A stretch of DNA of 32,000 bases, from positions 630,001 through 662,000 of the forward strand of contig CP042461.1 of the NCBI GenBank assembly GCA_004563595.2, in the 5' to 3' direction. Position numbers and translations under genes: made by a program. This stretch comes from Candidatus Saccharimonadota bacterium (GTDB lineage: Bacteria; Patescibacteriota; Gracilibacteria; BD1-5; UBA6164). The notes beneath the pieces are model-generated. The model made no database searches, had not been told where the DNA came from, and saw only the letters and a list, made by a program, of their open reading frames with translations. Below, in pieces: positions 1 through 27,652 of this stretch. Each line of letters opens with the position of its first letter. Positions within the stretch are counted from its first letter, which is position 1.

Positions 1-1
1 T

Positions 2-190
2 AGGAACAATTTTGCGAAGATCACAGGATATAAAATTCCTTCCAAACCAAAAACAAAATGACTTATAGGGTATGTTTTAGATTCTGAGAGAAAAATATTT
101 GAAGATTCTATTGAAGATAACCCAAATCGGATTGATATAATTACTTATGATGAACTTTATAAGAGATTTAAAAAGTTTTATGAGTCTTAA
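2..190 (+). CDS. 3' end (62 codons) of an unidentified gene entering from the left edge; ends ...NRIDIITYDELYKRFKKFYES*
   Basis: Frame 2 is open from nt 2 to TAA 188-190 if TGA 59-61 is read as Gly. A hairpin and T-run follow. Too short to assign a family. Confidence 0.35.
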
Positions 191-210
191 ATAATATACT
201 TATATAAATA

Positions 211-244
211 AAAAAAGGCTAGACTTTCATCTAACCTTTTTTTT
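211..244. terminator. A-run / imperfect hairpin / T-run, intrinsic-terminator-like
   Basis: aaaaaaGGcTAG-actttcat-CTAaCCtttttttt directly after the stop at 188-190. Confidence 0.5.
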
Positions 245-435
245 AACCTTTAAAGGTTATCTTGTGGACTATTCTATCCACTCAAAATATATCTCTTGGA
301 TTATCTCATTTTATGAGATCTCATTTCTTTAGCACTGTGGTTAAATCAAATGAACAATAGTTTTGCTCATCGTAGTGTGTTCAGTCGGCATCAACTGACT
401 CTATTGCATATTCGTACATAATATAAAAATTGTAA

Positions 436-518
436 AAGGACCCTAGCAGGAAGATCACCACAATCGTACACCTGCTAAGGTCCTTAAATAAGGTGATCTA
501 TTTAAATACGATTGTGGT
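436..518. repeat. Interlocked inverted repeats (pseudoknot-like topology)
   Basis: aaggaccctagcagg (436-450) pairs with cctgctaaggtcctt (471-485), 14 of 15. Its 20-nt loop contains gatcacc (453-459), complementary to ggtgatc (492-498), and ccacaatcgta (458-468), complementary to tacgattgtgg (508-518). Confidence 0.7.
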
Positions 519-1043
519 ATATTAGTTATAGCTATAAATAAATTATTTGCAAATTGTTTTTAAATGTAAAATAAATGACGTCACTGGAGTATAGCATAAT
601 AGTTTTTATAAAAGCAAAAGTTTTTTCGACTTTCTTGGCTTTGTGTAGGTGATATATCGATATTATAAGTACAAATAAACTATTGATTATAATGAAGTGA
701 TATTAACAGGGCATTAATATTGAGGATTAAAGTAATAATTTCTTTGATAGGTTAATATTACTGAGTCGAACTTTTCGTCTCATGGGAGGAATTCTTGAGT
801 GGTATATTGTTTATAGCTTTCTAATGTAAGATTTGGTACTTGTGTTTTTAAAGACATGTTATAAATTAAATAATACTTTAAATTTTTCTATTGAATCAAC
901 TCCATTCATTCATAGATACCACCCTATTGATGTATAGAATAGTATATTTATCAAGGTCATTAATGTACTAGACGTAAAGTCACTTATGAATTCTCAGAAT
1001 TGTATTATGAGAAACTCTCAATAAGTTCATATGTCTGGATCGC

Positions 1044-2312
1044 TTAAGCACTTATCACATTTCACTTTTTTTCATAGGATTTCTTTCATAATTTAATTTT
1101 AGGTTTTATAGTATATTTCTTTAAGATTCTATTAATTATAGATGCTTCAAGTCATTGTTCTTGTAAATATATGATTAAATTTTCTAGTAGATCATATCAA
1201 TTAAATAGTTTTCTATTCACAAGTTTGAATTGTTTCACATTATATCATTTACTTTTAGCATATTCATATTGATATAAGCTAGTTCTATCTCTTATAGTCT
1301 CTTTTGATTCTTTTTGAACTCATAGAACGGTATCAAAGAGTCAAACATATCATGTATTATTTTGAATAGTTTTTAAATATCAGTGTGACCTAGAGAGATA
1401 ATCTTTTGGAATATGTCAGTGCTGTAAATAATAACTTTTTAGATCAAATTTTACGTTAGTATATTTTTTGAGCTCTATATCTTTGTAATGTAACTCGTGT
1501 TCTGTATATCTATTGAAGTATTTTGTAAATATTCTTTGAATAGGTTTATTTCTATTCTCTAATATATCAGAGATGGAGAAATCTGTTATTCTTTTACATT
1601 CTTCGGGTCTGAGTTCTAGTTCAATTCTTCTTACATCATGATTATGTATGAGGTGAGGATAGAGGAATCATTTTTGTTTTTTCCAGGTATCAAGTATTTT
1701 ATCATAAACTCTAAATAGAAATTTACGGTTTGAATTACTTTGTGGATTATTGATATAGTAGGTTTGACTAAACTCAGGGTGTTTTTTGTCATTTCATATT
1801 TCAGAAAAGAAATTTACGTCTTTGAGGAGTTGGGATTTAATCTTTTTAATATCATAGGGTAAATCTATAGCAATATCTAACCTGTGTAAATCTGTTTTAT
1901 CATCTGTGAAAAATGCTTCATAGAATTCTTTTATGGAGAAATCTAGTTTGTCGCTCTTTTCTAAAACAAAAAAAGTAGAATAAAAAACTACTTTATCTTT
2001 TGAACGTTGTCATATTCCCCTATTCTCTTTTCATTTCAATATAGCAAAGAGACTCACGCTTCGTCATTCAAAGGAGGCTGAAAATCTTAATCAATCAGAG
2101 TATCAAGGAGGAGAAAAGCGATGATAGGTCCAGTGTATTCAAGCAAAACTCATATGTCATCAGTCTGAATTATCCCAATCAATATTAAAGCATGGTCATT
2201 CTTGTGTATTATAATCATAGAGAGATGGAGATTCTTGATAATCTTTTATAGTAAATTCTAGATGATCTAATCAGAAGAAGATATAATCATCTTTTATATT
2301 AATTTGGGTCAT
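1044..2312 (-). CDS. Replication initiation protein, Rep_trans (PF02486-like) rolling-circle initiator, 422 aa under code 25
   Basis: Hand translation is continuous from ATG 2312 to TAA 1044, with an in-frame TAA 12 nt upstream of the ATG. Family-typical motifs are present: HRLDIAIDL, NRKFLFRVYDKILD and VRRIELELRPEEC. By my count there are 22 in-frame TGA against one GGA for Gly. No SD. Confidence 0.8.
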
Positions 2313-3005
2313 TTGGATTTTTTACGCAATTAAAAGGACTTTTCGAGTGATAACATTCTTCCGGATTTACGCTCTGTAGACGTCCGGTGTTAGCAATGGA
2401 AAGCCAGTATGGCGGTGTATGTGCCAGTAAAGTTGTAAGGACATTATTGTAGTCCTATTTTAAAAAAAAGTGGGCTCTCAGAGCAGGATATTTGATGCTT
2501 TTTTAAGCATTTTTTATCTTTTTCTGAGAACTCACTAAACATAACAGGAGTTATGTTAATAAGAATCTATTTTAAATGGTTTTCAAATGTTAATAGCTTT
2601 AATATGCGTTTAATGTCTATTTAATGCGGATCTCCCCACATGCTATAACTTATGTTAAGTAGATCTTAACCATTTAAAGGGATAAGCTGTACTCTCACAA
2701 ATTACATTAATCACATAAAAATATGTTTTTAAAGATTTTTTAAGCCATTACTGGCTGAAATGCTCATTTTTGTACTTTCAATGTATATACACTGCAAACT
2801 TAGCTTTTTCAGTATCTCTTGACTGTTCAATCTGTAAAATCCTTATAAGCTGTTTTTGTAATTTTAACTCAAAACATGTTTCTAATGATGTCATAATTGA
2901 ATGTTCAATCATATTTGTTATTTCAATATAAAAATTTGACTACATATAATATTTACGTAAAATATTTTTATTCCGCTTATTCAATAAATAACTTGAGGTA
3001 TTTTT

Positions 3006-3311
3006 ATGAAAATTGGGTTGATCGTTTGTATTATAGTATTAGCTATTGTTTCTTTTGATAACTATCATATCAGGGTAAAACTTAGCAACCAAGTAAGTAT
3101 GACGAATCAGGTTCGATTTCATTTTGATCATTATAATGATGGAATAAGTGCGATTGTTTCAGCTTATAATGAAAAATGTCAAATTCCTACAGATACTGTA
3201 TTGGAGTTATCACTTTCTAAGCTATCTGGAAAGGAAAAATCTTATCCTGCTGTTACTCATATTATGAATAAACTCTCGGAATCTATAGGTGCTGTATCAA
3301 GTAATTGATAA
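3006..3311 (+). CDS. Small membrane-anchored protein, 100 aa (101 with a terminal Gly under code 25); autonomous cassette
   Basis: TTGACT-N16/17-TAAAAT promoter-like sequence at about 2937-2965 and GAGG 8 nt before the ATG. The N-terminus MKIGLIVCIIVLAIVSF is hydrophobic. All 4 internal Gly are GGN. The ORF ends TGA TAA (3306-3311), and a terminator follows. Confidence 0.6.
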
Positions 3312-3337
3312 TTTGTCGCTGAATAGAGTTAAAATAT

Positions 3338-3364
3338 CCCCCCTTAATAGGGGGTTTTATTTTA
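3338..3364 (+). terminator. Intrinsic terminator of the 3006 cassette
   Basis: ccccc-ttaata-ggggg hairpin followed by ttttatttt. Confidence 0.7.
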
Positions 3365-3465
3365 TTGATTTTTTTGTGGGTGTAGGCTACCCTTTAATTT
3401 AAATTATGACCTAAAGATGAAGACTACCCTCTTTCTTCGCTATGCTACGAAACAAATAGAAGAAT

Positions 3466-3502
3466 AAAAAACTAGCCCCCTAAAGCGTGGGGCTAGTTTT
3501 TT
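3466..3502. terminator. Bidirectional intrinsic terminator
   Basis: aaaaaa-CTAGCCCC-ctaaagcgt-GGGGCTAG-tttttt. It lies downstream of the minus-strand gene ending at 3548. Confidence 0.7.
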
Positions 3503-3547
3503 ATAGTAAATTTTATTCTATCTGATATAGAAGTATAAAGTATTATA

Positions 3548-3898
3548 CTACATATATTTTTTTGTAAGCTCATTTAATTCATCCATATCTATTTTTGCTA
3601 ATTTTTCAAGTCATATATCATTTATGTCTTCAGCAGATAACATATAACCAATTACAGTAATTTTTTCTACTGTCATTGATTCTAAAGAAAGAATTTCTAA
3701 TCAAATAGTATTTTTTTGTTGTTCGCTTAGATTGTTATTTATAGCTTCAAGTTTTTCTTTAGAAATATCTGAAGAATTAATGATTTCAGCATTTGTACGA
3801 GTAGTCTCTACAACTGCATTAATACCTTTTCACTGTTTAGATTCATTTTCTAATGAATTATTTTCTAGTTCTTCTCAATTCTCAGGTAATTTATCCAT
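3548..3898 (-). CDS. Hypothetical acidic protein, 116 aa (code 25)
   Basis: ATG 3898 to TAG 3548 is continuous with 4 TGA read as Gly (MDKLPENGEELENNSLENE...LTKKYM*). No SD and no recognisable domain. Confidence 0.5.
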
Positions 3899-4037
3899 TG
3901 TTTTATTTTAATTAATAATATTTATTTACGTAGATACTTGATATTAACATATAAATCATTAATTGTCAAATATATATTATTTTCATCATCTTGAAGTATT
4001 CAACAATAAGATAATAAGTTGCACTTAATTATATCTT

Positions 4038-4217
4038 TTATATATTCATAACATTATGGATAGAAGCATAAAACCAGATAGACATAATAAGAGCACTAAA
4101 TAGAATCTTGAAATGTCATTCTTGTTTCAGGATTATTAGAAAGATGATCAAAGGAATTATAAGAGTTTGGAACAAAAAGAAGGGGTAGTCTCATAGTCAT
4201 ATAAAATAATTGTACAT
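4038..4217 (-). CDS. Possible small membrane protein, 59 aa (code 25 only)
   Basis: GAGGAGGGGAG lies 10 nt upstream of ATG 4217. The translation MYNYFIGLGDYPFFLFQTLIIPLIIFLIILKQEGHF... is hydrophobic. It needs 3 TGA read as Gly; under the standard code it is only 6 codons. Confidence 0.3.
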
Positions 4218-4492
4218 AGGGTTATACTCCCCTCCTCAGATATTCAAAACAAGCTTGGTGGTAACTGAGTCAAAAATGAAGTAAAGACTAATCAGGTTAA
4301 TATTATATTTATAACCTGAATGTAACTTTAATATACTTAACTGATTCTTTATAGTTTTGTTTGTATAATTATTAACAAGGTAATAAATTTATGATTAAAT
4401 AATAATTTTTTATTTATGTTTTTACAAAATAATAGAATATTATATAATAATTTTGTTTTAGGTTAGCGTAATTTTACTAATATGGAGGATAT

Positions 4493-4792
4493 ATGTTACA
4501 TTCTAAAATTTCTGATGTAATAACCGGAGTGTTAAGAATAGTTTTTATTAGATCCTCAGGGTCAAAATTTATAACAATTTTTTTTATATTATGGTTTTTG
4601 ATATTACCATTTACATCATTGATTTCATTATCTATGTTGCTGATTAATTTTGGTTTTCCTATAATGTTAGAACATAAATTGCTTTATATTATACCTATAG
4701 GAGGTCTTATAGTCTCAGTAATATTGCCTTATTTTATTTATAAGCATGGTAAGCATTACTTGTTTTTCCACGTTATTGATAATGATTGATAA
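4493..4792 (+). CDS. Small integral membrane protein, 98 aa (99 with a terminal Gly under code 25); autonomous cassette
   Basis: TTTACA-N17/18-TATAAT upstream and GGAGG 5 nt before the ATG. Two or three hydrophobic segments. All 6 internal Gly are GGN. Ends TGA TAA (4787-4792). Confidence 0.55.
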
Positions 4793-4928
4793 GTATGTAA
4801 ATATGAAACCTTTGGCAGACATGCTAGAGGTTTTTATTTATCTTAATAGTCAGAAAAATCAATCCTTTTTGTTGACAATACAATTAATAATATATAATTA
4901 TACTGAAATTGTTCTAAGGAGACGAAAA

Positions 4929-5108
4929 ATGAATACTCAAAATATTCAATCTAATAAACTAACTAAGCAAGAGGAATCTCGTGCTGCTGTAGAATTATTA
5001 GTATCTGATGTAGATTTTGAAAGTATTGCTAAACGTACATGTGAACGTGATAGACTAAGAAGGATAAGACCATCTGATATGAAGAAGGTTTATAACTTTC
5101 GTAGATAA
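4929..5108 (+). CDS. Small basic protein, 59 aa
   Basis: AAGGAG lies 7 nt before ATG 4929 (MNTQNIQSNKLTKQEES...RIRPSDMKKVYNFRR*). Ends TAA TAA and is followed by a terminator. The 5' extension in the ORF track (from 4746) has no SD. Confidence 0.5.
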   Translation: MNTQNIQSNKLTKQEESRAAVELLVSDVDFESIAKRTCERDRLRRIRPSDMKKVYNFRR

Positions 5109-5131
5109 TAAATATTTCGTTACAATTTCAT

Positions 5132-5156
5132 AAGGGCCTAATGGCCCTTTTTTTAT
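5132..5156 (+). terminator. Intrinsic terminator of the 4493/4929 unit
   Basis: aaGGGCC-taat-GGCCCttttttt. Confidence 0.75.
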
Positions 5157-5192
5157 TGTTTAGACAATTGAGTTTTATCTTTAATTAGACAT

Positions 5193-5220
5193 AAAAAAAA
5201 AGCCGTGAAATTCACGGCTT
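5193..5220 (-). terminator. Intrinsic terminator of cassette 5225-5653
   Basis: aaaaaaaaa-GCCGTG-aaatt-CACGGC-tt, which reads as hairpin plus U-run on the minus strand. It is homologous to the hairpins at 5754 and 6274. Confidence 0.75.
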
Positions 5221-5224
5221 ATAT

Positions 5225-5653
5225 TTAGTAAGCAACAATTATATGATAATTATTCTCAGAATCTATTTCTGGAAAACTAACTTCACCAAAATGATTTATA
5301 CTTACTGTAATTCTTGATGAATGATCTTTTCTTAAAAGCACAATCTTTACTTTAGATAAGTCACCCCGAAACTTTCTTCCTATAAAGTTTCTTCCTAATT
5401 GAAATTTAAACCCTAACTTGATACCGTCATTATTAAAGCGTTTACGTACTTCAATAGATAAGTCACCCTCAAAATCTTCATAATTATCAAGGTTACTTTC
5501 ACTTAATACATAATCTTTTAATAGATTATGTATATGATCTTTTAGTTGAGGTGTTTCTATCTTAACAGAATTTGCTTTTTGTTGAGCTAGTTCTGTAATA
5601 TTTAGGCACGTTATATCATTTCCTTTATGATAACTTCTTTTTGCACTTTCCAT
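5225..5653 (-). CDS. Hypothetical protein, 142 aa; member 1 of a tandem paralog trio
   Basis: AAGGAG lies 8 nt before ATG 5653; the ORF-track start at 5722 has no SD. There is a TTGACT-N16/17-TAGTAT promoter. 8 Gly, none TGA. The C-terminal block is INHFGEVSFPEIDSENNYHIIVAY. Confidence 0.6.
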   Translation of the reverse strand: MESAKRSYHKGNDITCLNITELAQQKANSVKIETPQLKDHIHNLLKDYVLSESNLDNYEDFEGDLSIEVRKRFNNDGIKLGFKFQLGRNFIGRKFRGDLSKVKIVLLRKDHSSRITVSINHFGEVSFPEIDSENNYHIIVAY

Positions 5654-5753
5654 AACTACTACTCCTTTTAATATGGATTTCCATTTGCGCGTGCATACTA
5701 TCCAGACTTTTTTGTAAGTCAAGAATAAACTTTTATCTACTCATTTAAGCGTG

Positions 5754-5781
5754 AAAAAAGCCGTGAAGATCCACGACTTTT
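5754..5781 (-). terminator. Intrinsic terminator of cassette 5793-6170
   Basis: aaaaaaGCCGTG-aagatc-CACGaCtttt. Confidence 0.65.
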
Positions 5782-5792
5782 CATTTTCTAGA

Positions 5793-6170
5793 TTAAAAAA
5801 CGTTTAAGCTATATTCATTTATATGATGAGGTAAGACGAAAAAAAATCGACCATACTTATCCAGATTTGTGCATTTTATCTTGTTACCAAAACTGGTCAC
5901 AAGAATATTGGTAGTAGTAAAATGAACCTTTTTAGTATACTCTTTGTGTACTTGAAAAGATATATAAACTACTCTCCCCGCTTCTGTTATAAATGAACTT
6001 ATTAGAAGGTTCAAAAAGACTCCGTCTTTTGAAATTAATTCTACTAAATTACCTTCTTCGTCTTTTAATTTGAGGTTGTGCATAAGATCACTAACCTCCT
6101 TTACTAAGTCTTCATCAAAACAAATATCTTCTGATGTTTCATTAGTAATATTTACTTCAGCCACACCCAT
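5793..6170 (-). CDS. Hypothetical protein, 125 aa; member 2 of the tandem paralog trio
   Basis: AAGGAG lies 6 nt before the ATG, and TTGACA-N17-ACTATA is upstream. 6 Gly, none TGA. The C-terminal block is NLDKYGRFFFVLPHHINEYSLNVF. Confidence 0.65.
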   Translation of the reverse strand: MGVAEVNITNETSEDICFDEDLVKEVSDLMHNLKLKDEEGNLVELISKDGVFLNLLISSFITEAGRVVYISFQVHKEYTKKVHFTTTNILVTSFGNKIKCTNLDKYGRFFFVLPHHINEYSLNVF

Positions 6171-6273
6171 TTCATTCTCCTTTTAAAATTGGGTTCCATG
6201 CTATTTTATAGTATAGTAATTTAATCATATGTCAAATTTGAAAGTTTTGTATTCGGTTATTTAATATGCAAAT

Positions 6274-6299
6274 AAAAAGCCGTAAGATATACGGCTTTT
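6274..6299 (-). terminator. Intrinsic terminator of cassette 6318-6641
   Basis: aaaaAGCCGTA-agata-TACGGCTtttt. Confidence 0.75.
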
Positions 6300-6317
6300 A
6301 CATGTCTTAGCTTTTGA

Positions 6318-6641
6318 TTACAATTTTACTTTTATGGTGATAAGCGTTACTTGGTCCGTTAGAAACTCTATCATACCATTACTATCTACTTCCTGAAAAT
6401 CTTGTATATTAACCCCGTTAATTTCAACTGCAGCCCAAATTTGGCTTAGATTTATATTTTTTTTAGACTTATTATTAAAAGTTAGATAGATAAGTTTAGT
6501 CTTCCCTATATATTGAGTAATGAGCTCAAAATATAGGGAATAAGAAATAGAATCATTATCTTCATTCTGAAGGATAAGATTTCCTTTTATTTCTTCAATA
6601 CCTTCTTGTAATGTAATCATTGCTACTTGAGTATTTATCAT
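6318..6641 (-). CDS. Hypothetical protein, 107 aa; member 3 of the tandem paralog trio
   Basis: AAGGAG lies 5 nt before ATG 6641. A TTGACT-N17-ATTATA promoter sits just after the recX stop. 5 Gly, none TGA. The C-terminal block is VDSNGMIEFLTDQVTLITIKVKL. Confidence 0.6.
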   Translation of the reverse strand: MINTQVAMITLQEGIEEIKGNLILQNEDNDSISYSLYFELITQYIGKTKLIYLTFNNKSKKNINLSQIWAAVEINGVNIQDFQEVDSNGMIEFLTDQVTLITIKVKL

Positions 6642-6727
6642 TCTAGCTCCTTTTTGAATTATTTTACTCAGCATCTGTATAATATATATAAAATTAGAAG
6701 AGTCAAGTATGTCCTGATAATATATAT

Positions 6728-7321
6728 TTATTTATTTATTATTTCTTTAATATCACCATAGAAAAATCATTTTCTGAGAAGCTTTTCTATAATTTTCTTT
6801 TTTTCATATTTTCATTCAAGTTTTTGGTACTCATGAGCAAGGTTTTCATTATCTCACTTATCTCAAAATACAACACTCAGGGCATTCTCAACTCATTCTC
6901 TATCTAATTTTCTTTCTATTAATTTTATTTTTATATATTGAATAGACTTCCCTTTATTTTTAAAATTTTCAATTTTTCTGACAAGTGAATGCACATTTAA
7001 CAAACTATGTTCTTCGCTTCAAAATTCATTTGTTAATATTTCATTTATTCTATCTTTTGGAAATTGTTTTTTCATGAGATTGAGTTTGATATAGTTCACA
7101 TTTTTATTTCTAAAAATATAATTTTTTATGTTTGATCTGATAATATCATCCTCAGTGAATAGATGTTTAATTTGATCCAATACTCAATCTACGAGTTCCC
7201 TATCTTGTAGCGTTTTTTCTAATAATTTATTTTCAAGTTTTTTGTTTGATGGAAAATACCTAAAATAATACCATAAAGCATAGTCTTTGAGTCGAATGGA
7301 TGTTGTTATTATTTTATTCAT
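6728..7321 (-). CDS. recX: RecX-like regulatory protein, 197 aa (code 25)
   Basis: Continuous translation with 6 TGA read as Gly. The N-terminus YALWYYFRYFPSNKKLENKLLEK and the C-terminus KKIIEKLLRKGFFYGDIKEII match the repeated three-helix pattern of RecX (PF02631). No SD. Confidence 0.7.
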
Positions 7322-9677: not shown

Positions 9678-9702
9678 TAGAAAAATAATTGAAAAACCTT
9701 TA

Positions 9703-9748
9703 ATAACCCATCGCCCTTTGGGCACTTCCCTTCATCCGAATGGAAGAC
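9703..9748 (+). repeat. 46-nt double-hairpin intergenic element, copy 2 (after groEL)
   Basis: ataacccatcgccctttgggcacttcccttcatccgaatggaagac. It differs from copy 1 only within hairpin 1, and the stem is preserved. Confidence 0.8.
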
Positions 9749-9767
9749 TTATTTTGTTATAATTATC

Positions 9768-10178
9768 ATGATTTGCAATAAAAAAGCTTTTTCATTGGTC
9801 GAGGTAATTGTTGCTGCAACGATATTATCAATTTCAGTTTTTTGAGTATACAAATTAATATGAGAGAATAATAAATTGTTACATAATTCAGGGAATTATC
9901 TCCAGGCAAATATGTTATTTATTCCTTTTATCGAATGTCTTGATAATATTTGATTTGATTCATTTTCTGGATCAAGTACTCAGAACTATACTTTTAATTT
10001 TTGATCAGATAAAACATGATGTTTTACATGATCTATAGATGTAGTAGAACTTGATAATATTGAATATGAATTATCTTGAGTTATTACTGGTTCTTGATCT
10101 GAGTTTATCGACTGGGATTTACAGATTTCGAATGATAATATATGAGTTATTGAAAATACATATAAACAAATAAAATAA
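9768..10178 (+). CDS. Prepilin-type N-terminal cleavage/methylation domain protein (pseudopilin or minor pilin), 136 aa (code 25)
   Basis: MICNKKAFSLVEVIVAATILSISVF has a class III signal-peptide-like motif with Glu at +5 and Ala instead of Gly at -1. Checked codon by codon; about 11 TGA read as Gly. Confidence 0.75.
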
Positions 10179-10180
10179 AT

Positions 10181-10218
10181 AAAAAAAAGACACGAGTAGC
10201 TTTCTCTTGTCTTTTTTT
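10181..10218 (+). terminator. Intrinsic terminator after the pseudopilin gene
   Basis: aaaaaaaAGACAcGAG-tagcttt-CTCtTGTCTtttttt. Confidence 0.7.
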
Positions 10219-10518
10219 ATATAATGCTTACTAATTCCTTTTTTTCAGATAGAGTCATATATCAGATATATCGTAAAAATGAAACTTTTTCAGCGATAGT
10301 TAATTTTTTAGAACATGATATTGCATCCAAGACCATTGGTTCTAAAATTACTTTACTTTTTCACATATTTTTTTATATTATAATGAATAATATTGTTATT
10401 TGGAGTTTTAATCTATTATTAACTTCTCCACTAAAATAATTTAAGTATACCTCTATATTAAACCATAGATATTAATAATTGTCAAATATCTTCCTATTTT
10501 TTAAAAGACTTCTTCTTT

Positions 10519-10995
10519 ATGATTATTCTTTGAATTGATCCATGAACAACAACAACGGGTTTTGCTCTTATTAAAAAGGAATCTTGAAATTTTACATTAC
10601 TTGATTATGGTATATTTAAAACGACTCCAAAAATAGATTTAGCAATTAAGCTTTTAGAAATCTGAAATGATATAAAAGAAATTATATCTTCTTTTAAGCC
10701 TGATGTTGTAGTTATTGAAAAGCTTTTCTTTCAAACAAATTTAAAAACAGGTATCGACGTAGCACAAGCAAGATGAGTTGTTATGTATGAGTCAATAAGA
10801 GCTGATACAAAGATACTTGAGTATACTCCCCTTCAGGTAAAAAAAGCTATCACATGAAATGGTCAAGCAAATAAACTCCAACTTCAGAATGCAATTAAGA
10901 TGATATTTAAGCTTGATGAAATCCCAAAACCTGATGATGCTGCTGATGCTATTGGTCTTGCGTATATGGGTGCTTTGAATAATAGGTTGACTTAA
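10519..10995 (+). CDS. ruvC: Holliday junction resolvase RuvC, 158 aa (code 25)
   Basis: MIIL[G]IDP[G]TTTTGFALI (TGA 10531-10533 and 10543-10545 on the invariant glycines)...VVVIEKLFF...PDDAADAIGLAYM. Confidence 0.92.
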
Positions 10996-11540: not shown

Positions 11541-11617
11541 AAGGACCTAGCTTAATTAGAAGAGTGCTCGGATTCCGACCCCGAGAAGCGTACGTGCAAT
11601 TCGTGCGGTCCTTGCCA
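11541..11617 (+). tRNA. Atypical tRNA-like gene with encoded CCA; probable anticodon CCG (Arg)
   Basis: Perfect 7-bp acceptor stem AAGGACC/GGTCCTT, discriminator G, then CCA. T arm is GTACG-TGCAATT-CGTGC. Anticodon stem is CTCGG/CCGAG with a 9-nt loop ATTCCGACC, or a 7-nt loop TTCCGAC if A.C closes it. The D stem is weak (G.T, C-G, T-A, T.G), and the loop AATTAGAA lacks GG. Confidence 0.55.
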
Positions 11618-13259: not shown

Positions 13260-14846
13260 TTAATTCTTAAAACAACGAATAGCAGAACCCGTTGGACGTT
13301 CTATAGAATGAATAGCAGAAACGGCTGATTGAGTTGATACTCTTAAGACGTATCCATTCAAACTTGCTGGTGAAGCACTTGCATAAAATCCTATGATTTC
13401 TGTAGATGCTAAGTAAGCATTCCAATGTTGACGGTACCCATTTAATGGTAATTTAAGAGTACTTCTTATGGCTGCCCCATTATTTTGCCATCATCATGCT
13501 ATTACTACACCACTCCATTCCGTATAGGCAGGTATATGATATCATGTAACACATGGTCATTGCATTTTAGTTTGGTTACTAGGATCTGAGCTAGAATAAG
13601 TAGCTGTTGAACTATTTACAACTCACCAATCATTGGCACTTCATGCATTGGTTCATCCTGGTGACTTCCAATCATAACTCCATGAAGAGTTTGAATTAGT
13701 CCATGTTCCGTCTTCATAACTTACGTTTCTACCAAATTGGAAATGACCTCAGTATGAACTTGCAGTTGTTCATGCTATATTAGTTCATAGATTACAAGCT
13801 GATATTGTAAAAGGTCAATATCAATTTGCTGCTGGAACTGTTATATCATCTGTATCACATCATGGGTAATTAGCGTATTCATGGAATGCACTACAAGCAT
13901 TATTTTCTCATCAATTCAGACCATCACATGTCCATGTATAATTACTTCATTCTCATCCATCTGTTACGCTTGTTTGTGTTCAAGTGACACAGAGGTTAGT
14001 TGGTGTGGTTATGAAACTTCATGAATTATCTGATCCACATATCCCATTTTCTGGTGCTACATAATCTGATACTTTTCCTGTAATAATAGTTTCTGCAAAA
14101 TTTCGAGCTGTTGAGCTATCTAAACTTGCTACCACTGCATATATTTCATCATTCAACTCTGAAGTTGTTGAATATGCTGTTTTAAGGGCAAGAGCAAAAT
14201 TTTCATAGTTATCTTTTATATTATTACTGGTAAGTATTACTCATGAATTTGTAAGTTGTACTACTTGATAGTTTACAATTTTATCATTGAGTTCAAAATC
14301 CACTGCAGTGTCTAAGTCTTCTGCTGATGTATGAAGTCATGGGACTCCATAATAACTTCCATTATCTGCCAATAGATATAATCAGTTATATGTTCATTTT
14401 ACATATGGTGAAGTTGATTCTGCATAGCTTGTATTTGTGATGTTATTTTGTGCTAATTCAAAGTCATATTTTAATTCATATTCTTTCCTACTTAATGTCG
14501 TTGCATATTTCATAGTTTCCCCTGTTTTTGGATCTAGTGGTAATTTAGAAAGTCTTTCCACTTGTGTTTGTACTGTAGTATCCATATTTCAAGACTTCCA
14601 TAATATAACGGTTCATCATGAGGCTGTTATGTCTGAAGAATTTCAAGGGAGTGGATATTTTCCAGTTTTTAATGCAAAGAATTCTAATACATTTTCAGTA
14701 TTTTTTATATCTGTTATTCTTGCTCCATTTCGTGCATGCTTACTATATCATTGTAATGATATAAACGCTATAGTTCATAGGATTGTTAGAATAGTAATCA
14801 CTACTATTAATTCTACCAGAGTAAATGCTTGTTTTTTTAGATTCAT
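13260..14846 (-). CDS. Type IV pilin-like protein with a C-terminal FISUMP (Fibrobacter succinogenes major paralogous, TIGR02145-like) domain, 528 aa (code 25)
   Basis: MNLKKQAFTLVELIVVITILTIL[G]TIAF prepilin motif. The C-terminus carries [G]PCVT[G]YHIPAYTEWSGV...FYASASP...SAIRCFKN*. The whole ORF was checked codon by codon, and it includes ORF-track fragment 14394-14585. Confidence 0.8.
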
Positions 14847-16872: not shown

Positions 16873-18600
16873 TTATGGTAAAGCTATACCTCTTGTCATA
16901 AAATATATAATTGCGCAGAGACTTCCTGATCCAGGAACTGTTAGTACCCATGCTGATGCAATTTGTATCATATTTTTTTTAAGATTCAAGCTTCTTTGCT
17001 CTATTTCATGTTCTTTTTCTTGTGCTTTTCCTTTTTTCCTTTTAGCTTCTAATAATGAAATATTTAGGTGTATAAGTGTATCTTGTAACTTAATTATCTC
17101 ATCTTTAGTTATCTCATCTGGTTCAGCGATTGCTGATTTTCCATCTAAGACTGATTCGGTTTCTTTTATTTCTTTTTTTATTCTGTTTACTTTTTTCTTT
17201 CTTTTATTAATTTTTTTATGTGCATTCTCAAGTAGATTTGCATTTTCCCAGAATTTCGATCTTTCGCTATCTCCTTGTGGTTCTAGGATAACTACAATTT
17301 TATTTATCCATCCAATTATAGTTGGAAAATAAGCAACTGCAAATACACCTCCAACAGCTATATGAGTAGAACTAACTGGTATTCCTAGTTGTGACGCAAG
17401 AATTACAGTACAAGTTGATCCCATTGCAATAGAGAACGATCTTATTGGGGTAAGTTCTGTTATATCGCTTCCGACTTTTTTGATAATTCTTTTTCCAAAG
17501 AATCCAAGTCCGATCACAAGTCCTACAATACCAATGCCCATTATCCATAGGGGTATTGCTGCTTTTTTTGATATGCCATTATTAATAATCGCATCATAAA
17601 TTGCTGCGTATGGACCAATTGCATTTGCTATATCATTTGCTCCATGCGCAAAACATAACAGACAGGCTGCTCCTATTAATGGTTTGATAAAAAGATCATT
17701 TATCCAGTTGATGTTAGTAACAGAATTAGTAATACTCTTCTTATCAATTTTTGAAGTAGCTTTCTTAATTATTGGTTTTGCTATCAAATACGCTACAGTT
17801 GCTATACCAAACCCAATGAGTACTGCAACACTGGCATCTAAGCTTATTACTTTTTTTAATCCTTTAAGTAAAAGATAAGTAGTTGCTGACCATGTCATTA
17901 TTGCAATAACTAATGGAATTACTTTTTGTGCTGCAGCTAATTGATCTTTTTGATAAACAATAAATCTCTTAATAAACCATAAGAAGATAGCTGTTATTAT
18001 TCCACCAAGTACTGGTGAAGCAACCCAACTTCCAACAATTTTTAAAACTGTCCACCAAGCCACAATATCAAGACCACCAGCTGCTATTCCTCCTCCCAAT
18101 ACTGCTCCTACAATAGAGTGAGTCGTTGAGACCGGTGCTCCTAGTTTTGTTGCGATATTTAACCATATTCCTGCAGCAAGTAATGATGAAACCATTAAGA
18201 AAATATATTCATGTATATTTGATGAAAACATACTAGGATCAATAATTCCTTTTTTGATCGTTTTAACAACATCACCACCAGCTATGAATGCACCACCAGC
18301 CTCAAAAATAGCAGCTACAATAAGTGCAGTAGTTAATGAAAATGCTCCTGCTCCATATGCAGGACCAATATTGTTTGCTACGTCATTTGCACCAATATTT
18401 ACTGCCATATAGCCACAAACTAATGCACCAAATGCAAGAGTATAACTTGCGTTTATAATTGTGTTATCATATAGTGTAATTGTTCCAGCAAAGTATACAT
18501 ATATAGAACATGTAAGTGTTGCTAGGACTATTGCAGTAATAATGATAAAAAAATTATTAATTGTAATAGACTTATTATTGTCTACAGTTGTAGTATTCAT
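16873..18600 (-). CDS. Inorganic phosphate transporter, PiT/PHO4 family (PF01384-like), 575 aa from the second ATG
   Basis: The two PiT signature repeats GANDVANNIGP and GANDIANAIGP are present, with many TM segments. GAGGGG lies 6 nt before ATG 18600, and TTGACA-N18-TATATA is upstream. About 48 Gly codons, none TGA. A charged coiled-coil-like insert of about 100 aa lies near the C-terminus. Confidence 0.9.
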   Translation of the reverse strand: MNTTTVDNNKSITINNFFIIITAIVLATLTCSIYVYFAGTITLYDNTIINASYTLAFGALVCGYMAVNIGANDVANNIGPAYGAGAFSLTTALIVAAIFEAGGAFIAGGDVVKTIKKGIIDPSMFSSNIHEYIFLMVSSLLAAGIWLNIATKLGAPVSTTHSIVGAVLGGGIAAGGLDIVAWWTVLKIVGSWVASPVLGGIITAIFLWFIKRFIVYQKDQLAAAQKVIPLVIAIMTWSATTYLLLKGLKKVISLDASVAVLIGFGIATVAYLIAKPIIKKATSKIDKKSITNSVTNINWINDLFIKPLIGAACLLCFAHGANDIANAIGPYAAIYDAIINNGISKKAAIPLWIMGIGIVGLVIGLGFFGKRIIKKVGSDITELTPIRSFSIAMGSTCTVILASQLGIPVSSTHIAVGGVFAVAYFPTIIGWINKIVVILEPQGDSERSKFWENANLLENAHKKINKRKKKVNRIKKEIKETESVLDGKSAIAEPDEITKDEIIKLQDTLIHLNISLLEAKRKKGKAQEKEHEIEQRSLNLKKNMIQIASAWVLTVPGSGSLCAIIYFMTRGIALP

Positions 18601-18882
18601 ACACATCCCCTCATTATGAGTTTTTGAAAAGTTTATAAAACAACGTATATATAGTATGATTTTTTGTATATTGTCAAAAAGTATTTTAAATAATACTTGT
18701 ATAGTAACTGCACATGTAACAATTTACATTAGGTTCTTTTAAGACTTCGATGCTAATATAAGATTCTAATTATTTGATAATGATATATGTTAGAGGTAAT
18801 TTAGATATAGAAATTATAAATGAGTACTTAGAAAAACCTGGTTTTGAGCTTTTAATAATTGAAGCTTTTGGATAAATAATTT

Positions 18883-18916: not shown

Positions 18917-19324
18917 TTACGATAACAATGGTTCTTTCAAAACTAGAGATGCATTTGGAGCAAATTCTTCGAATGCACTAATTACTTTATCTAAAGCATG
19001 TTTATTGTTAAATAATGATGGTAAAATTGGGCTGATGTTCAGTTTCTTCAATACCTCTTCAGTTTCATTAGAAAATTTAACTGTACTCATAAGAGCTTGA
19101 GATATTTGAGAATTATCAAAATCAGGTCCTTCAATATTGCTAATTATAGCCGACTGTGAAGAGTCTAGCGTCAATATTCCATGCCAGTATTCAAAGGCTG
19201 CAGAACTACTTTCATCACGTAGTTTTCTAATATCGTTACATAATGATTCTACGTTTACTTCAGCTACATATGATGATAACTCTAGAGCATCTTTCAATAA
19301 TTCATCACCATCTTTATTATCCAT
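18917..19324 (-). CDS. Hypothetical acidic protein, 135 aa; autonomous cassette
   Basis: AAGGAG lies 8 nt before the ATG. TAA stop. 3 Gly, none TGA. No recognisable domain. Confidence 0.55.
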   Translation of the reverse strand: MDNKDGDELLKDALELSSYVAEVNVESLCNDIRKLRDESSSAAFEYWHGILTLDSSQSAIISNIEGPDFDNSQISQALMSTVKFSNETEEVLKKLNISPILPSLFNNKHALDKVISAFEEFAPNASLVLKEPLLS

Positions 19325-19438
19325 TATTATTACTCCTTTTTAATTTTTAATAATTATGGCCTAAATATTTATACGAATACTTTGTAATAAGTCAAAATAG
19401 TTTTCTTTTATTTAGAAAATAAGTGAGAAAGGTAAATT

Positions 19439-19469
19439 AAAAGGCTCACTTATAAGTGAGCCTTTTTTT
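19439..19469 (-). terminator. Intrinsic terminator of cassette 19491-19865
   Basis: aaaaGGCTCACT-tata-AGTGAGCCttttttt. Confidence 0.8.
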
Positions 19470-19490
19470 AATCATGAGACATAGGTCTAT

Positions 19491-19865
19491 TTATGCATAT
19501 TGCTTCAATGGAACCTTATCTATTACCGTAACGTTATATGAAGATATATTGCTTAATATTTCTTGCATTTCTCCAATTTCGCTGGAATTTGAGAACATGT
19601 TATCAGTTAAATAACATATTACGTCGTATGATTTTGTTTCTGTTGGTACTAAAAAAGTTATTTTATCTTTTTTAGGTGGGTTAATTAAACGATCAAGAAG
19701 CCCCTTTTTTCTCACTAATTTCATTTCCCAAAGAGTTTTTTTATAAGGATTAAATAGCCATTTTCGTCTGAATACAATCCCTTCAACTTTATATCTGTTT
19801 TTTATAGATGAAGGCAAATTTTGTTTAAAGCCTAGTATTATTTTTTTACTTGCTTTTTTAGGCAC
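19491..19865 (-). CDS. Hypothetical basic protein, 124 aa (GTG start); autonomous cassette
   Basis: AAGGAA lies about 9 nt before GTG 19865. The N-terminus PKKASKKIILGFKQ...RRKW is Lys/Arg-rich. 4 Gly, none TGA. TAA stop. Confidence 0.5.
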   Translation of the reverse strand: MPKKASKKIILGFKQNLPSSIKNRYKVEGIVFRRKWLFNPYKKTLWEMKLVRKKGLLDRLINPPKKDKITFLVPTETKSYDVICYLTDNMFSNSSEIGEMQEILSNISSYNVTVIDKVPLKQYA

Positions 19866-19972
19866 TTTTCACTTTTCCTTTTTTGATTATTGTCAATGAC
19901 GAAGGAGTTATATTGATAAATATGACTAAGTCAAGAAAATATATAAAAATAAAGTATTGTATTATACAAGTT

Positions 19973-20000
19973 AAAAGAGCTATTATTCAATAGCTCTTTT
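19973..20000 (-). terminator. Intrinsic terminator of cassette 20035-20391
   Basis: aaaaGAGCTATT-attc-AATAGCTCtttt. Confidence 0.75.
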
Positions 20001-20034
20001 AATTGTATTCAATATATTTTGGTAATTCTTAACT

Positions 20035-20391
20035 CTATATATTTTCCCTTTCTCTATTTATATGAGCAATAAATCTTTTAATCATATTCACTAATTTTAT
20101 TACTTCATCAGCTGATAAATCAGGTCGATTATCATTATCAAAATAAGGCTTATCTTTACTTTTACAAGTCATATCTAGTGTGTAATCATCGAGATATTTC
20201 TTCCTTTGATGGTTATTTTCTATAAAACCCTGATAATTTTCTAAACATCCACGTAATGTTCGTTTTTCCAGGGATTTAATTATTTCAACTACTATACCAT
20301 AATCTCTTTCTATATTTTTTCCTTCATCTTCTATACTCTTACTTGAAGAAGAACCTATACTGAAAGAGGAATAGCTTAATTCTTTACTCAT
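20035..20391 (-). CDS. Hypothetical protein, 118 aa; autonomous cassette
   Basis: AGGGAG lies 9 nt before ATG 20391; the ORF-track start at 20421 has no SD. 5 Gly, none TGA. TAG stop. Confidence 0.5.
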   Translation of the reverse strand: MSKELSYSSFSIGSSSSKSIEDEGKNIERDYGIVVEIIKSLEKRTLRGCLENYQGFIENNHQRKKYLDDYTLDMTCKSKDKPYFDNDNRPDLSADEVIKLVNMIKRFIAHINRERENI

Positions 20392-25381: not shown

Positions 25382-25469
25382 TCTGTTGCTTTTTAGATTT
25401 GCAGAGGATTGTTGTAATTCTAAAAAGGGGAAATCAAAACAAAATTATATGAGAAAAGGAGATTATCTC

Positions 25470-25991
25470 ATGCTACATAAAAGTGTTCTTTTAATGTTTC
25501 TACTTATAGCTATATATATTTTGGCTTCTTGTGGAGGAGGAAATCCTGGACCACCAGATCCACTCCCTGAACCTGAATATAATAATGAGAATCAAGACAC
25601 GGTTGGTGATGATTTAGAAGAATTATCTAAATCACCGATATCTTTTTATGATCTAAATATTGATGATGAAAAGTATTGGGAATCACAATTTGATATAGGA
25701 TATATTCTGACTGCAGAAATACCCTTAGATATTACGTTAGAATTATCTGGAAATACAAAACTATGTTTTTCTGTGGATTATTTAAGTGATGTTGATGACT
25801 GTGATGAGATTCAACTTCAAACAAAAGGACAGCTTGGTGATTTAGATATTACTGTAACTATTGATTCTGTAGCCCAGAATTATGAAAATAATTCTGTAAT
25901 ATATATTGAGGAAGATTCATTCGTTCATATACAGGCATATAGTTTAAAAGAAATACTTCTAAAAACTCAATTTGTTTTTAATATAAAATAA
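25470..25991 (+). CDS. Lipoprotein, 173 aa; autonomous cassette
   Basis: AAGGAG lies 7 nt before ATG 25470. MLHKSVLLMFLLIAIYILAS-C-GGGNPGPP has a lipobox (LAS|C). The mature part is acidic. 9 Gly, none TGA. TAA stop. Confidence 0.7.
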   Translation: MLHKSVLLMFLLIAIYILASCGGGNPGPPDPLPEPEYNNENQDTVGDDLEELSKSPISFYDLNIDDEKYWESQFDIGYILTAEIPLDITLELSGNTKLCFSVDYLSDVDDCDEIQLQTKGQLGDLDITVTIDSVAQNYENNSVIYIEEDSFVHIQAYSLKEILLKTQFVFNIK

Positions 25992-27208: not shown

Positions 27209-27652
27209 TTATAATACTTCGTCAGTAAGTTTGTTATAAGTGAAAATATCAGTTCCTTTAAAGAATCTATTTAGTTCAATTTCAGCATTTTCTGAAGTAT
27301 CTGAAGCGTGGATAATATTTGCATCTATAGATAATGCAAGGTCACCTCTAATTGATCCTGGTAATGCTTCAACTGGATTTGTTGCACCAGTTAACATTCT
27401 TACTGTAGCTATTGCATTTGCACCTTTAGCTGCTATTGCTACAATTGGAGTTCTTGTCATATATTTTTTAATATTTGGAAAGAATGGTTTATCCATTAAG
27501 AAATCATAATGTTCTTCGATGATAGCATCATCTAATTGCATCATTTTTAATCCTGTAATTTTTAATCCTTTTGCTTCTAATCTAGCGATAACTTGACCAA
27601 TTAAACTTCTTTCAATTGTATCTGGTTTTAATAGTATAAGTGTAGTTTCCAT
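27209..27652 (-). CDS. ndk: Nucleoside diphosphate kinase, 147 aa
   Basis: METTLILLKPD...FFPNIKKYMTRTPIVAIAAKGANAI...NIIHASD (active-site His). No SD. All 8 Gly are GGN. Start chosen at the conserved N-terminus rather than the ORF-track start at 27685. Confidence 0.93.
   Translation of the reverse strand: METTLILLKPDTIERSLIGQVIARLEAKGLKITGLKMMQLDDAIIEEHYDFLMDKPFFPNIKKYMTRTPIVAIAAKGANAIATVRMLTGATNPVEALPGSIRGDLALSIDANIIHASDTSENAEIELNRFFKGTDIFTYNKLTDEVL

Follow-up and report, generated by a model that had tools for sequence, protein, structure and literature searches.

A divergent Rep_trans-type initiator gene in a probable inovirus-like prophage of a code-25 Gracilibacteria genome

The 32,000-nucleotide (nt) stretch analysed here (contig CP042461.1 of GenBank assembly GCA_004563595.2, forward-strand positions 630,001 to 662,000; hereafter the window, numbered from its first letter) carries near its left end, on the minus strand, the gene of a 422-aa Rep_trans-type rolling-circle initiator (Rep; 1044-2312, starting from an ATG at 2312). 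This gene and the phage-like element to which it appears to belong are the subject of this work. The initial annotation, made from the sequence alone, had proposed such an ORF (open reading frame) with the motifs RLDIAIDL, FRVYDK and RRIELELR, and had credited it with the most extreme use of TGA for glycine in the window. Both proposals hold: the three motifs are read in the translation, and the glycine codons comprise 22 TGA and a single GGA, a TGA share of 0.96 that is the highest among the window ORFs of at least 100 aa, against 0.49 overall. With code 25, the window contains 58 ORFs of this size, versus 22 with code 11. In the GroEL gene of the window, TGA sits at the glycines of GPKxRN, APxFGD and VAxGxVAL; these are conserved glycine positions and the code is therefore 25, not 4. 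The suggestion that the element is native to a code-25 host also stands, its other genes being rich in TGA as well: 40 of 49 glycine codons in a 603-aa protein and 15 of 18 in an ATPase, both described below.

We conclude that Rep is a very divergent Rep_trans-type initiator, based on the fold of a homolog model, the catalytic motifs and transitive homology; the class named by the initial annotation is thus borne out, although not by a direct profile match. A word-seeded search retrieved 35 Rep homologs, none passing as a Pfam-domain protein. The top one (P0001) is the window Rep translated with tryptophan at TGA, and PF02486 is matched by two of the 35 (best E 0.0016, below the Pfam gathering score). 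The family profile, run in a full HMMER search, brought 296 relatives to light, and among 81 distant ones PF02486 is matched by 26 (best 9.2e-07) and PF05144 by 4. The structure model is that of homolog P0012, a correctly translated NCBI Gracilibacteria protein, and was built by AlphaFold (AF2) with the family alignment (pLDDT 83). Searched against the PDB, it matches only RepDE (4CWC) and RepSTK1 (4CIJ) at E <= 1e-3, both with probability 1.0, the next match having an E of 0.27; its best match in a viral structure library is an uncultured Inoviridae protein (E 3.8e-11). For the catalytic domain, the P0012 model accordingly points to the crescent-shaped beta-sheet fold found in RepSTK1 and RepDE, the catalytic motifs falling on its beta-strands, and the helical C-terminal half is likely a DNA-binding domain.

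The catalytic residues of RepD are D46, R140xD142xA144xD146, T176xY178, R189xY191xK193..E196 and R212xE214, with Y191 as the nucleophile and a metal held by D46, D142 and E214 (PMC4797284). In Rep, R144-L-D146-I-A148-I-D150 (D146 and D150 invariant in the family, R144 kept in at least 90% of the sequences) aligns in hhalign with RLDLAFD of RepC; R201-V-Y203-D-K205..D208, all invariant, is aligned to RIYNK of RepC; T184-Y-Y186 and R229-I-E231 are also invariant; and D16 is kept in at least 90% of the sequences, the modelled homolog being truncated at its N-terminus. Y203 is the predicted nucleophile. A number of results weigh against the assignment. Rep has no Pfam match even at E <= 10, so that the profile test against PF02486 proposed in the initial annotation failed for Rep itself, and the comparison with phage Rep families proposed alongside was equally negative in PHROGs; NCBIfam gave noise only, and PDB sequences searched by profile, with the close as well as the distant family alignment, returned nothing relevant. 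The hhalign comparison with RepC (a single sequence, taken from pT181) is weak, with an E of 0.05, and the structural likeness is moderate (target-normalised TM 0.38-0.45) and concerns the model of P0012, not of the window Rep.

The genes that accompany Rep point to a filamentous phage. Loci of Rep relatives (L numbers) were taken from genome and metagenome collections, and one of them, L001 (a Logan contig of run SRR3580189), is identical to window 1-2717 and reaches 6.7 kb further left. Its right end, at window 2717, falls inside the intergenic region upstream of Rep, and no repeat that would explain this was found. In L001, read with code 25, Rep is followed by three small ORFs, an opposite-strand pair, a single-stranded DNA-binding protein (SSB; PF00436, 1.8e-27), proteins of 68, 85, 603 and 83 aa, and an ATPase. 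The 85-aa membrane protein, with a hydrophobic segment near its end and then KKGGRS, resembles the major coat protein of filamentous phages, an assignment made by a hydropathy rule and not by a family model; the 68- and 83-aa proteins are small membrane proteins, and coat-like homologs occur in L032 and L034. The 603-aa protein has a signal peptide and a C-terminal anchor, and the 296-aa Walker-A ATPase matches PHROG 1675, "morphogenesis (protein I of M13)" (4e-5). Relatives of Rep show the same gene order, with Rep and the ATPase together in 15 loci, and the ATPase of L007 passes the Pfam Zot model (PF05707, 37.4 bits against a threshold of 20.3). Two relatives that carry both Rep and the protein I-like ATPase are circles of 7.4 kb: L004, whose 107-nt terminal overlap gives a circle of 7,378 nt, and L007, with a repeated unit of 7,404 nt. 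No portal, terminase, tail or capsid gene was found among the element's proteins in Pfam and PHROGs scans, and no secretin was seen in the element. An NCBI protein of Candidatus Gracilibacteria bacterium 28_42_T64 (locus tag A9Q91_02955), located on a 1.34-Mb contig, agrees with the ATPase at 100% identity, and the element is therefore integrated in that chromosome. Taken with the circular relatives, the SSB, the coat-like proteins and the protein I/Zot-like ATPase argue for an inovirus-like phage rather than a plasmid or an integrative conjugative element (ICE). Rep is thus probably the replication initiator of an integrated filamentous-phage-like (inovirus-like) prophage of 28_42_T64, in which TGA encodes glycine. 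The initial annotation had listed a plasmid, a phage and an ICE as possible sources of the replicon; the gene context retains the phage and speaks against the other two.

The relatives also vary in their gene content and hosts. In L003, L004, L005, L007 and L008, conserved ORFs of ~600-680 aa stand directly before the ATPase and combine a signal peptide with five or six C-terminal membrane segments, which is unusual for an inovirus adsorption protein. One relative (L007, L016-L020; GC 37-38%, a 7,404-nt unit forming the 7.4-kb circle) uses the standard code, and L008 is binned with Saccharibacteria, so that the hosts of the phage lineage are not confined to those with code 25. In L032, whose ATPase is 70% identical to that of the window element, a tyrosine recombinase (PF00589) is encoded shortly after the ATPase gene (9693-10589), and by analogy the window element may have one beyond the available sequence.

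Upstream of Rep, an intergenic region of ~690 nt (2313-3005) is the positional counterpart of the protein I-to-Rep intergenic region of circular L004, and it is the only region near Rep that shows sequence conservation with several relatives. In the L004 circle, the long non-coding stretch is this ATPase-to-Rep interval, upstream of Rep and not downstream, as in Ff phages. In the window, the region contains a candidate nick-site hairpin, AGGAC-tacaataat-GTCCT (2438-2456, minus strand), on the Rep-coding strand and 126-144 nt before the Rep ATG. The coding strand was scanned within 1,400 nt upstream of Rep for hairpins with at least five pairs, two or more of them G-C, and an 8-10-nt loop that ends in A[AG]TAAT. 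Of 25 non-redundant loci, 18 have such a hairpin, against a background expectation of ~0.27 (5 matches in the remaining 481 kb). The hairpin of L029 is the same but for one mismatch. Elsewhere the stems vary widely (AGGAC, AACCAT, GTACGGGC, AACCGCC and others), up to the 17-bp stem of L007 (GGTATTTGTAGCCCGTC-actaataat-...). For the 11 loci whose loop is 9 nt long, 98.5% of cells are paired and each of the six pairs has changes on both sides; pairing, double-change cells and covariation score were each reached by 0 of 500 shuffles, and slid controls pair at 32-47%. Against this it must be said that the covariation count is partly circular, because the scan itself required pairing; the positional enrichment is the independent evidence.

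Rolling-circle nick sites classically look like this: the loop is fixed, the stem is free to vary, and the hairpin stands on the plus strand shortly before rep. In the sites of pT181 (CTACTCT/AATAGCCGG) and f1 (TTCTTT/AATAGTGG), AATAG stands at the cut; the hairpin loop of L002 holds AATAGTAAT, which is a lead only and not a test. The pT181 nick site CTACTCTAATAGCCGG, as located in pT181, was not seen in the sequence read upstream of Rep. A CAACTT box (2430-2435, minus strand) lies 2 bases (TA) 3' of the hairpin and is kept in L002, L003, L004, L011, L029, L030 and L031. Between the hairpin and the Rep start lie, both on the minus strand, a partly conserved block (ACTGGCTTTCCATTGC on the coding strand, 2393-2408) and an inverted repeat CCGGA...TCCGG (2361-2387); together (2361-2408) they could possibly form the Rep-binding site. 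Just 5' of the hairpin, also on the minus strand, a long hairpin (2469-2535) followed on the coding strand by eight T (2461-2468) looks like a terminator (2461-2535 in all). From its sequence and position, the hairpin at 2438-2456 is the best candidate, and the likely one, for the double-strand origin, in place of the stretch downstream of Rep that had been flagged for this role.

That downstream stretch (240-1043) had been described as 800 nt without ORFs, a description that does not survive translation with code 25: it contains three small minus-strand ORFs, each with homologs in related elements. The 76-aa ORF (859-1089, five TGA codons) overlaps the 3' end and stop of Rep and has a homolog at the same position in L029 (1e-14); the 47-aa ORF (714-857), with the motif GDEKF...TY..(D/N)Y, has homologs near the 3' end of Rep in L009, L028, L029, L030 and L031; and the 58-aa ORF (243-419, four TGA codons) has homologs in L030 and L009. 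Only a palindrome-rich non-coding stretch (420-713) is closed in all six frames; relatives carry a membrane-protein gene there, and a decayed copy of it was considered and dropped for lack of a significant tblastn match. The structural features noted earlier fared better. The palindromes are present within 1 nt of where they had been placed (atgagatctcat at 313-324, inside the 58-aa ORF, and atatcgatat at 654-663), as are the interlocked repeats (436-450/471-485, 457-468/507-518 and 453-459/492-498). Region 240-1043 has seven 10-nt palindromes, compared with 1.54 +/- 1.25 in dinucleotide shuffles (0 of 300 reach seven), and is the most palindrome-dense 804-nt stretch of the window; as single-stranded DNA, 428-526 folds with a z of -4.56 against shuffles.

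The interlocked repeats make up a two-helix element on the minus strand (436-518; helix A 436-450/471-485, helix B 457-468/507-518), in which the arms follow each other as 5' arm B, 5' arm A, 3' arm B and 3' arm A. Since the helices are interleaved, they must form either a pseudoknot or two alternative states. The element was found in one relative, L028, at a comparable position (74% over 121 nt), where four compensatory double substitutions and the coordinated deletion of one pair leave both helices complete. Judged from this comparison, the interlocked repeats are a real and conserved cis element. Our first guess is that they act as a single-strand phage signal, for packaging or as a complementary-strand origin, and our second that they act as an RNA-level switch before the 58-aa ORF. 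A plain intrinsic terminator at helix A was rejected: helix A is followed by a weak T tract and does not appear among the terminators given by the scan.

To the left of these ORFs, the window opens with the 3' end of a plus-strand gene (1-190) for a 385-aa SduA (Shedu)-like nuclease recognised by Pfam (SduA_C, 27.8 bits against a threshold of 27) and PADLOC (SduA, 2.4e-10). With a 204-aa PDC-S35-like protein (PADLOC, 1e-7), it forms an opposite-strand cassette (window 1-190, L001 2528-4377) that is inserted between the replication module and the structural module. A 15-pair hairpin flanked by runs of A and T (210-243) looks like a two-way terminator for the 58-aa ORF on one side and the Shedu-like gene, which converges on it, on the other. 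According to its genome paper, 28_42_T64 lacks CRISPR-Cas, and prophages and plasmids are not mentioned there (PMC6851277); the Shedu-like cargo suggests that the prophage supplies defence to a host without CRISPR-Cas. On the other side of Rep, beyond the intergenic region, three small ORFs without family matches (3006-4217; 101 aa on the plus strand, 116 and 59 aa on the minus strand) may be phage genes. They are followed by a direct repeat (4215-4305) that is 93% identical over 92 nt to the sequence abutting the ATPase stop, 10,968 nt to the left, and is a candidate att or border repeat. The search for flanking direct repeats that the initial annotation had advised thus gave a 92-nt pair, the left copy of which is cut by the contig end; L001 ends exactly at the start of this copy, and for this reason the repeats can be read as attachment sites or as part of a tandem array. 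A second repeat (4319-4375) shares 87% identity with a stretch located 87 nt ahead of the SSB gene of the prophage; a promoter or operator may have been duplicated here.

Further upstream of Rep, window 9768-10995 holds RuvC, a 49-aa ORF and a pilin-like gene. This RuvC neighbourhood lies upstream of a Rep element in four Gracilibacteria genomes (the window, L009 6598-7794, L029 1089-2305 and L031 133-912), all with the pilin-like gene except L031. RuvC itself is 73-76% identical to the window's in the other three. The phage modules are mosaic by comparison: relative to the window element, Rep and the ATPase are 45% and 78% identical in L031, and 61% and 27% in L029. Such mosaicism suggests that elements integrated, or modules were exchanged, repeatedly at a favoured neighbourhood rather than that a single old insertion took place, and the ruvC-pilin neighbourhood may therefore be an integration hot spot. 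Type IV pilin-like N-termini are encoded in the window at 9768-10178 (FSLVEVIVA) and 13260-14846 (FTLVELIVV). Type IV pili are common receptors of filamentous phages.

How else could the locus be explained? Rep and the region downstream of it (240-1043) might together be the replicon core, with the palindromes and interlocked repeats as double- and/or single-strand origin. The density of palindromes and the stable fold of 428-526 would fit, and the compensatory changes in L028 do indicate a cis signal, possibly a complementary-strand origin or a packaging signal. Nevertheless we regard this arrangement as unlikely: some 550 of the ~800 nt are taken up by the three small ORFs with homologs, the 436-518 element occurs in a single relative as opposed to the 18 of 25 loci that have the upstream hairpin, and circular L004 has its long non-coding stretch on the other side of Rep. 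What remains of the origin-like layout first proposed downstream is a possible single-strand origin, the double-strand origin being better placed at the conserved hairpin upstream. Much less probable still is that a rolling-circle plasmid integrated here and simply has unrelated phage-like genes as neighbours. Rep_trans initiators are indeed typical of small Gram-positive plasmids such as pT181, and several Rep homologs sit on contigs of only 2-2.5 kb; these were examined as tiny plasmids and set aside, as they have neither a terminal overlap nor a circular signature. Moreover, Rep and the protein I-like ATPase share the same 7.4-kb circles and co-occur in the 15 loci, and tblastn against 72,556 plasmids gave no match. 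Least probable of all is a MOB_T-type relaxase of an integrative conjugative or mobilisable element. Rep_trans proteins do serve as relaxases in ICESt3, Tn916 and ICEBs1-type elements, as described in two reports (PMC9371924, PMC6499999), yet no coupling protein, VirB4 or other conjugation gene was found in the 9.5 kb of L001 or in window 1-7000, and the neighbours are instead the SSB, the coat-like proteins and the Zot/protein I-like ATPase.

A prophage that is defective or domesticated, in which Rep no longer replicates an element, is another reading to which we assign a low probability. In its favour are the opposite-strand defence cassette, which parts the replication module from the structural one, and the presence of related elements at the same ruvC-pilin neighbourhood of four genomes; circular forms are known from relatives, not from this copy, in which no integrase is seen. 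On the other hand, all ORFs are intact, every catalytic residue is kept and the structural module is complete; the close relatives are free circles; and module identities that vary while RuvC stays at 73-76% throughout speak for recent exchange among active phages, not for vertical decay. We therefore keep to an inovirus-like prophage, against which the following points must be counted. Its structural module lies outside the window, and the sole source for it is another assembly of this organism. The borders of the prophage are tentative, ~11 kb separating the direct repeats of which the left one is cut by the contig end. No integrase was seen in the sequence available for the element. Finally, its own ATPase is only weakly like protein I (the PHROG 1675 match) and fails the Pfam Zot model (PF05707, 11.7 bits).

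By analogy with RepC/RepD of pT181 and RstA of CTXphi, we propose that Rep, as a dimer, would bind an origin situated in the intergenic region that precedes its gene and cut the coding (plus) strand at or beside the hairpin at 2438-2456; Y203 would be the nucleophile, and D16, D146 and E231 would hold a divalent metal. Rep would then remain bound covalently to the 5' end, the 3'-OH being extended by a helicase and a polymerase of the host, and would reseal the displaced strand after one round. The resulting single-stranded circles would be coated by the phage's own SSB and then either return to duplex DNA or, together with the small coat proteins, be extruded by way of the protein I/Zot-like ATPase. 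This scheme builds on what is observed, namely the fold and catalytic motifs, the neighbouring genes, the circular relatives and the conserved, covarying hairpin; the exact cut site, the activity of Rep, continued excision and replication of this copy and the role of the 436-518 helices are inferred.

The comparison with known systems brings out both kinship and divergence. Rep shares with the Rep_trans initiators RepC/RepD (pT181 family) and RepSTK1 the predicted fold and the motif set at similar spacing (a candidate N-terminal Asp, RxDxAxD, TxY, RxYxK..acidic, RxE), as well as the succession of a catalytic domain and a helical C-terminal domain. It differs from them in sequence (10-15% identity, no Pfam match) and is ~100 aa longer; in contrast to the pT181 family, its candidate origin is upstream of the gene, the loop reads A[AG]TAAT and the context is that of a phage, not a plasmid. 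There is a parallel in gene order with inoviruses that use Rep_trans-type initiators (CTXphi RstA; the "cryptic inoviruses", PMC6813254), which have the same series of Rep, SSB, small coat, large adsorption-like and small membrane proteins and a protein I/Zot-like ATPase, and which share with the window element small circular relatives, integration, cargo genes and module mosaicism. Unlike these inoviruses, the window element uses code 25 throughout, its ATPase is barely recognisable by Pfam and its relatives encode the ~600-aa protein that has several membrane segments towards its C-terminus. Inoviruses have been reported in the Candidate Phyla Radiation, with Gracilibacteria not appearing in the main text (Roux et al., 2019; PMC6813254), and, by the count of a later preprint, nine of the filamentous phages in that work are linked to Patescibacteria.

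With the Ff gene II protein (PF05144, Phage_CRI; phage f1), Rep has in common its role, to initiate rolling-circle replication in a filamentous phage, and an origin (here a candidate) that lies in an intergenic region ahead of the rep gene, and the Phage_CRI motifs resemble those of Rep_trans (PMC4797284). The distant relatives of Rep nevertheless match PF02486 more often (26 versus 4 for PF05144), and the origin sequence differs. Prophages that are integrated, read TGA as glycine and are dense in in-frame TGA are already known from Gracilibacteria/Absconditabacteria (PMC10746230). The twelve Gracilibacteria prophages of Liu et al., 2023, all of code 25, were recognised by portal, tail, terminase or integrase genes and are therefore tailed phages (PMC10746230), whereas the window element is of filamentous type, with no portal, tail, terminase or integrase gene seen in the sequence available for it. 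The literature searched did not yield any filamentous prophage described from a genome that uses code 25, and no relative of Rep was found in the searched copies of IMG/VR (with the Rep profile), of INPHARED phages or of PLSDB plasmids (both by tblastn).

Some further features of the window are recorded here. While about half of its glycine codons are TGA, several ORFs contain none (4746-6674, a series of four ORFs; 16873-18606; 18917-20391; 25449-25991; 27209-27652), the clearest case being a 577-aa multi-pass membrane protein (16873-18606, 0 of 48 glycine codons); recent import from standard-code organisms, or selection on certain genes, is possible. The sole tRNA of the window, a tRNA-Arg (CCG) at 11541-11617, lies ~9 kb from Rep and adjoins neither repeat. 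No tmRNA was found in the window; no Rfam family reached its gathering score there, and none noteworthy appeared in 1-4600 at E <= 1.

The mobile elements of code-25 bacteria are barely described, and a filamentous prophage with TGA as glycine adds a second phage type to the tailed prophages of these lineages. A Rep_trans initiator and an inovirus-like prophage are known kinds, but the lineage and the Rep subfamily appear to be undescribed. Its escape from detection is understandable: under code 11, 22 in-frame TGA codons break the rep gene, and no profile library recognises the protein. Tentatively, and with somewhat less than even confidence, we propose that the filamentous phages marked by Rep form a separate clade, probably of family rank, that is confined to Patescibacteria, code-25 Gracilibacteria among them, and is largely invisible to standard-code gene calling and absent from the searched IMG/VR, INPHARED and PLSDB; this clade would be characterised by (i), its own Rep_trans-like subfamily; (ii), a diagnostic hairpin with an A[AG]TAAT loop; (iii), a preference for integration at the ruvC-pilin neighbourhood; and (iv), Shedu-like and PDC-S35-like cargo in a host that lacks CRISPR-Cas. 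The origin hairpin and the Rep profile are simple handles for finding more such elements. We know of no genetic tools for Patescibacteria, and for this reason a small rolling-circle replicon with a defined origin could be of use as a vector backbone in these bacteria.

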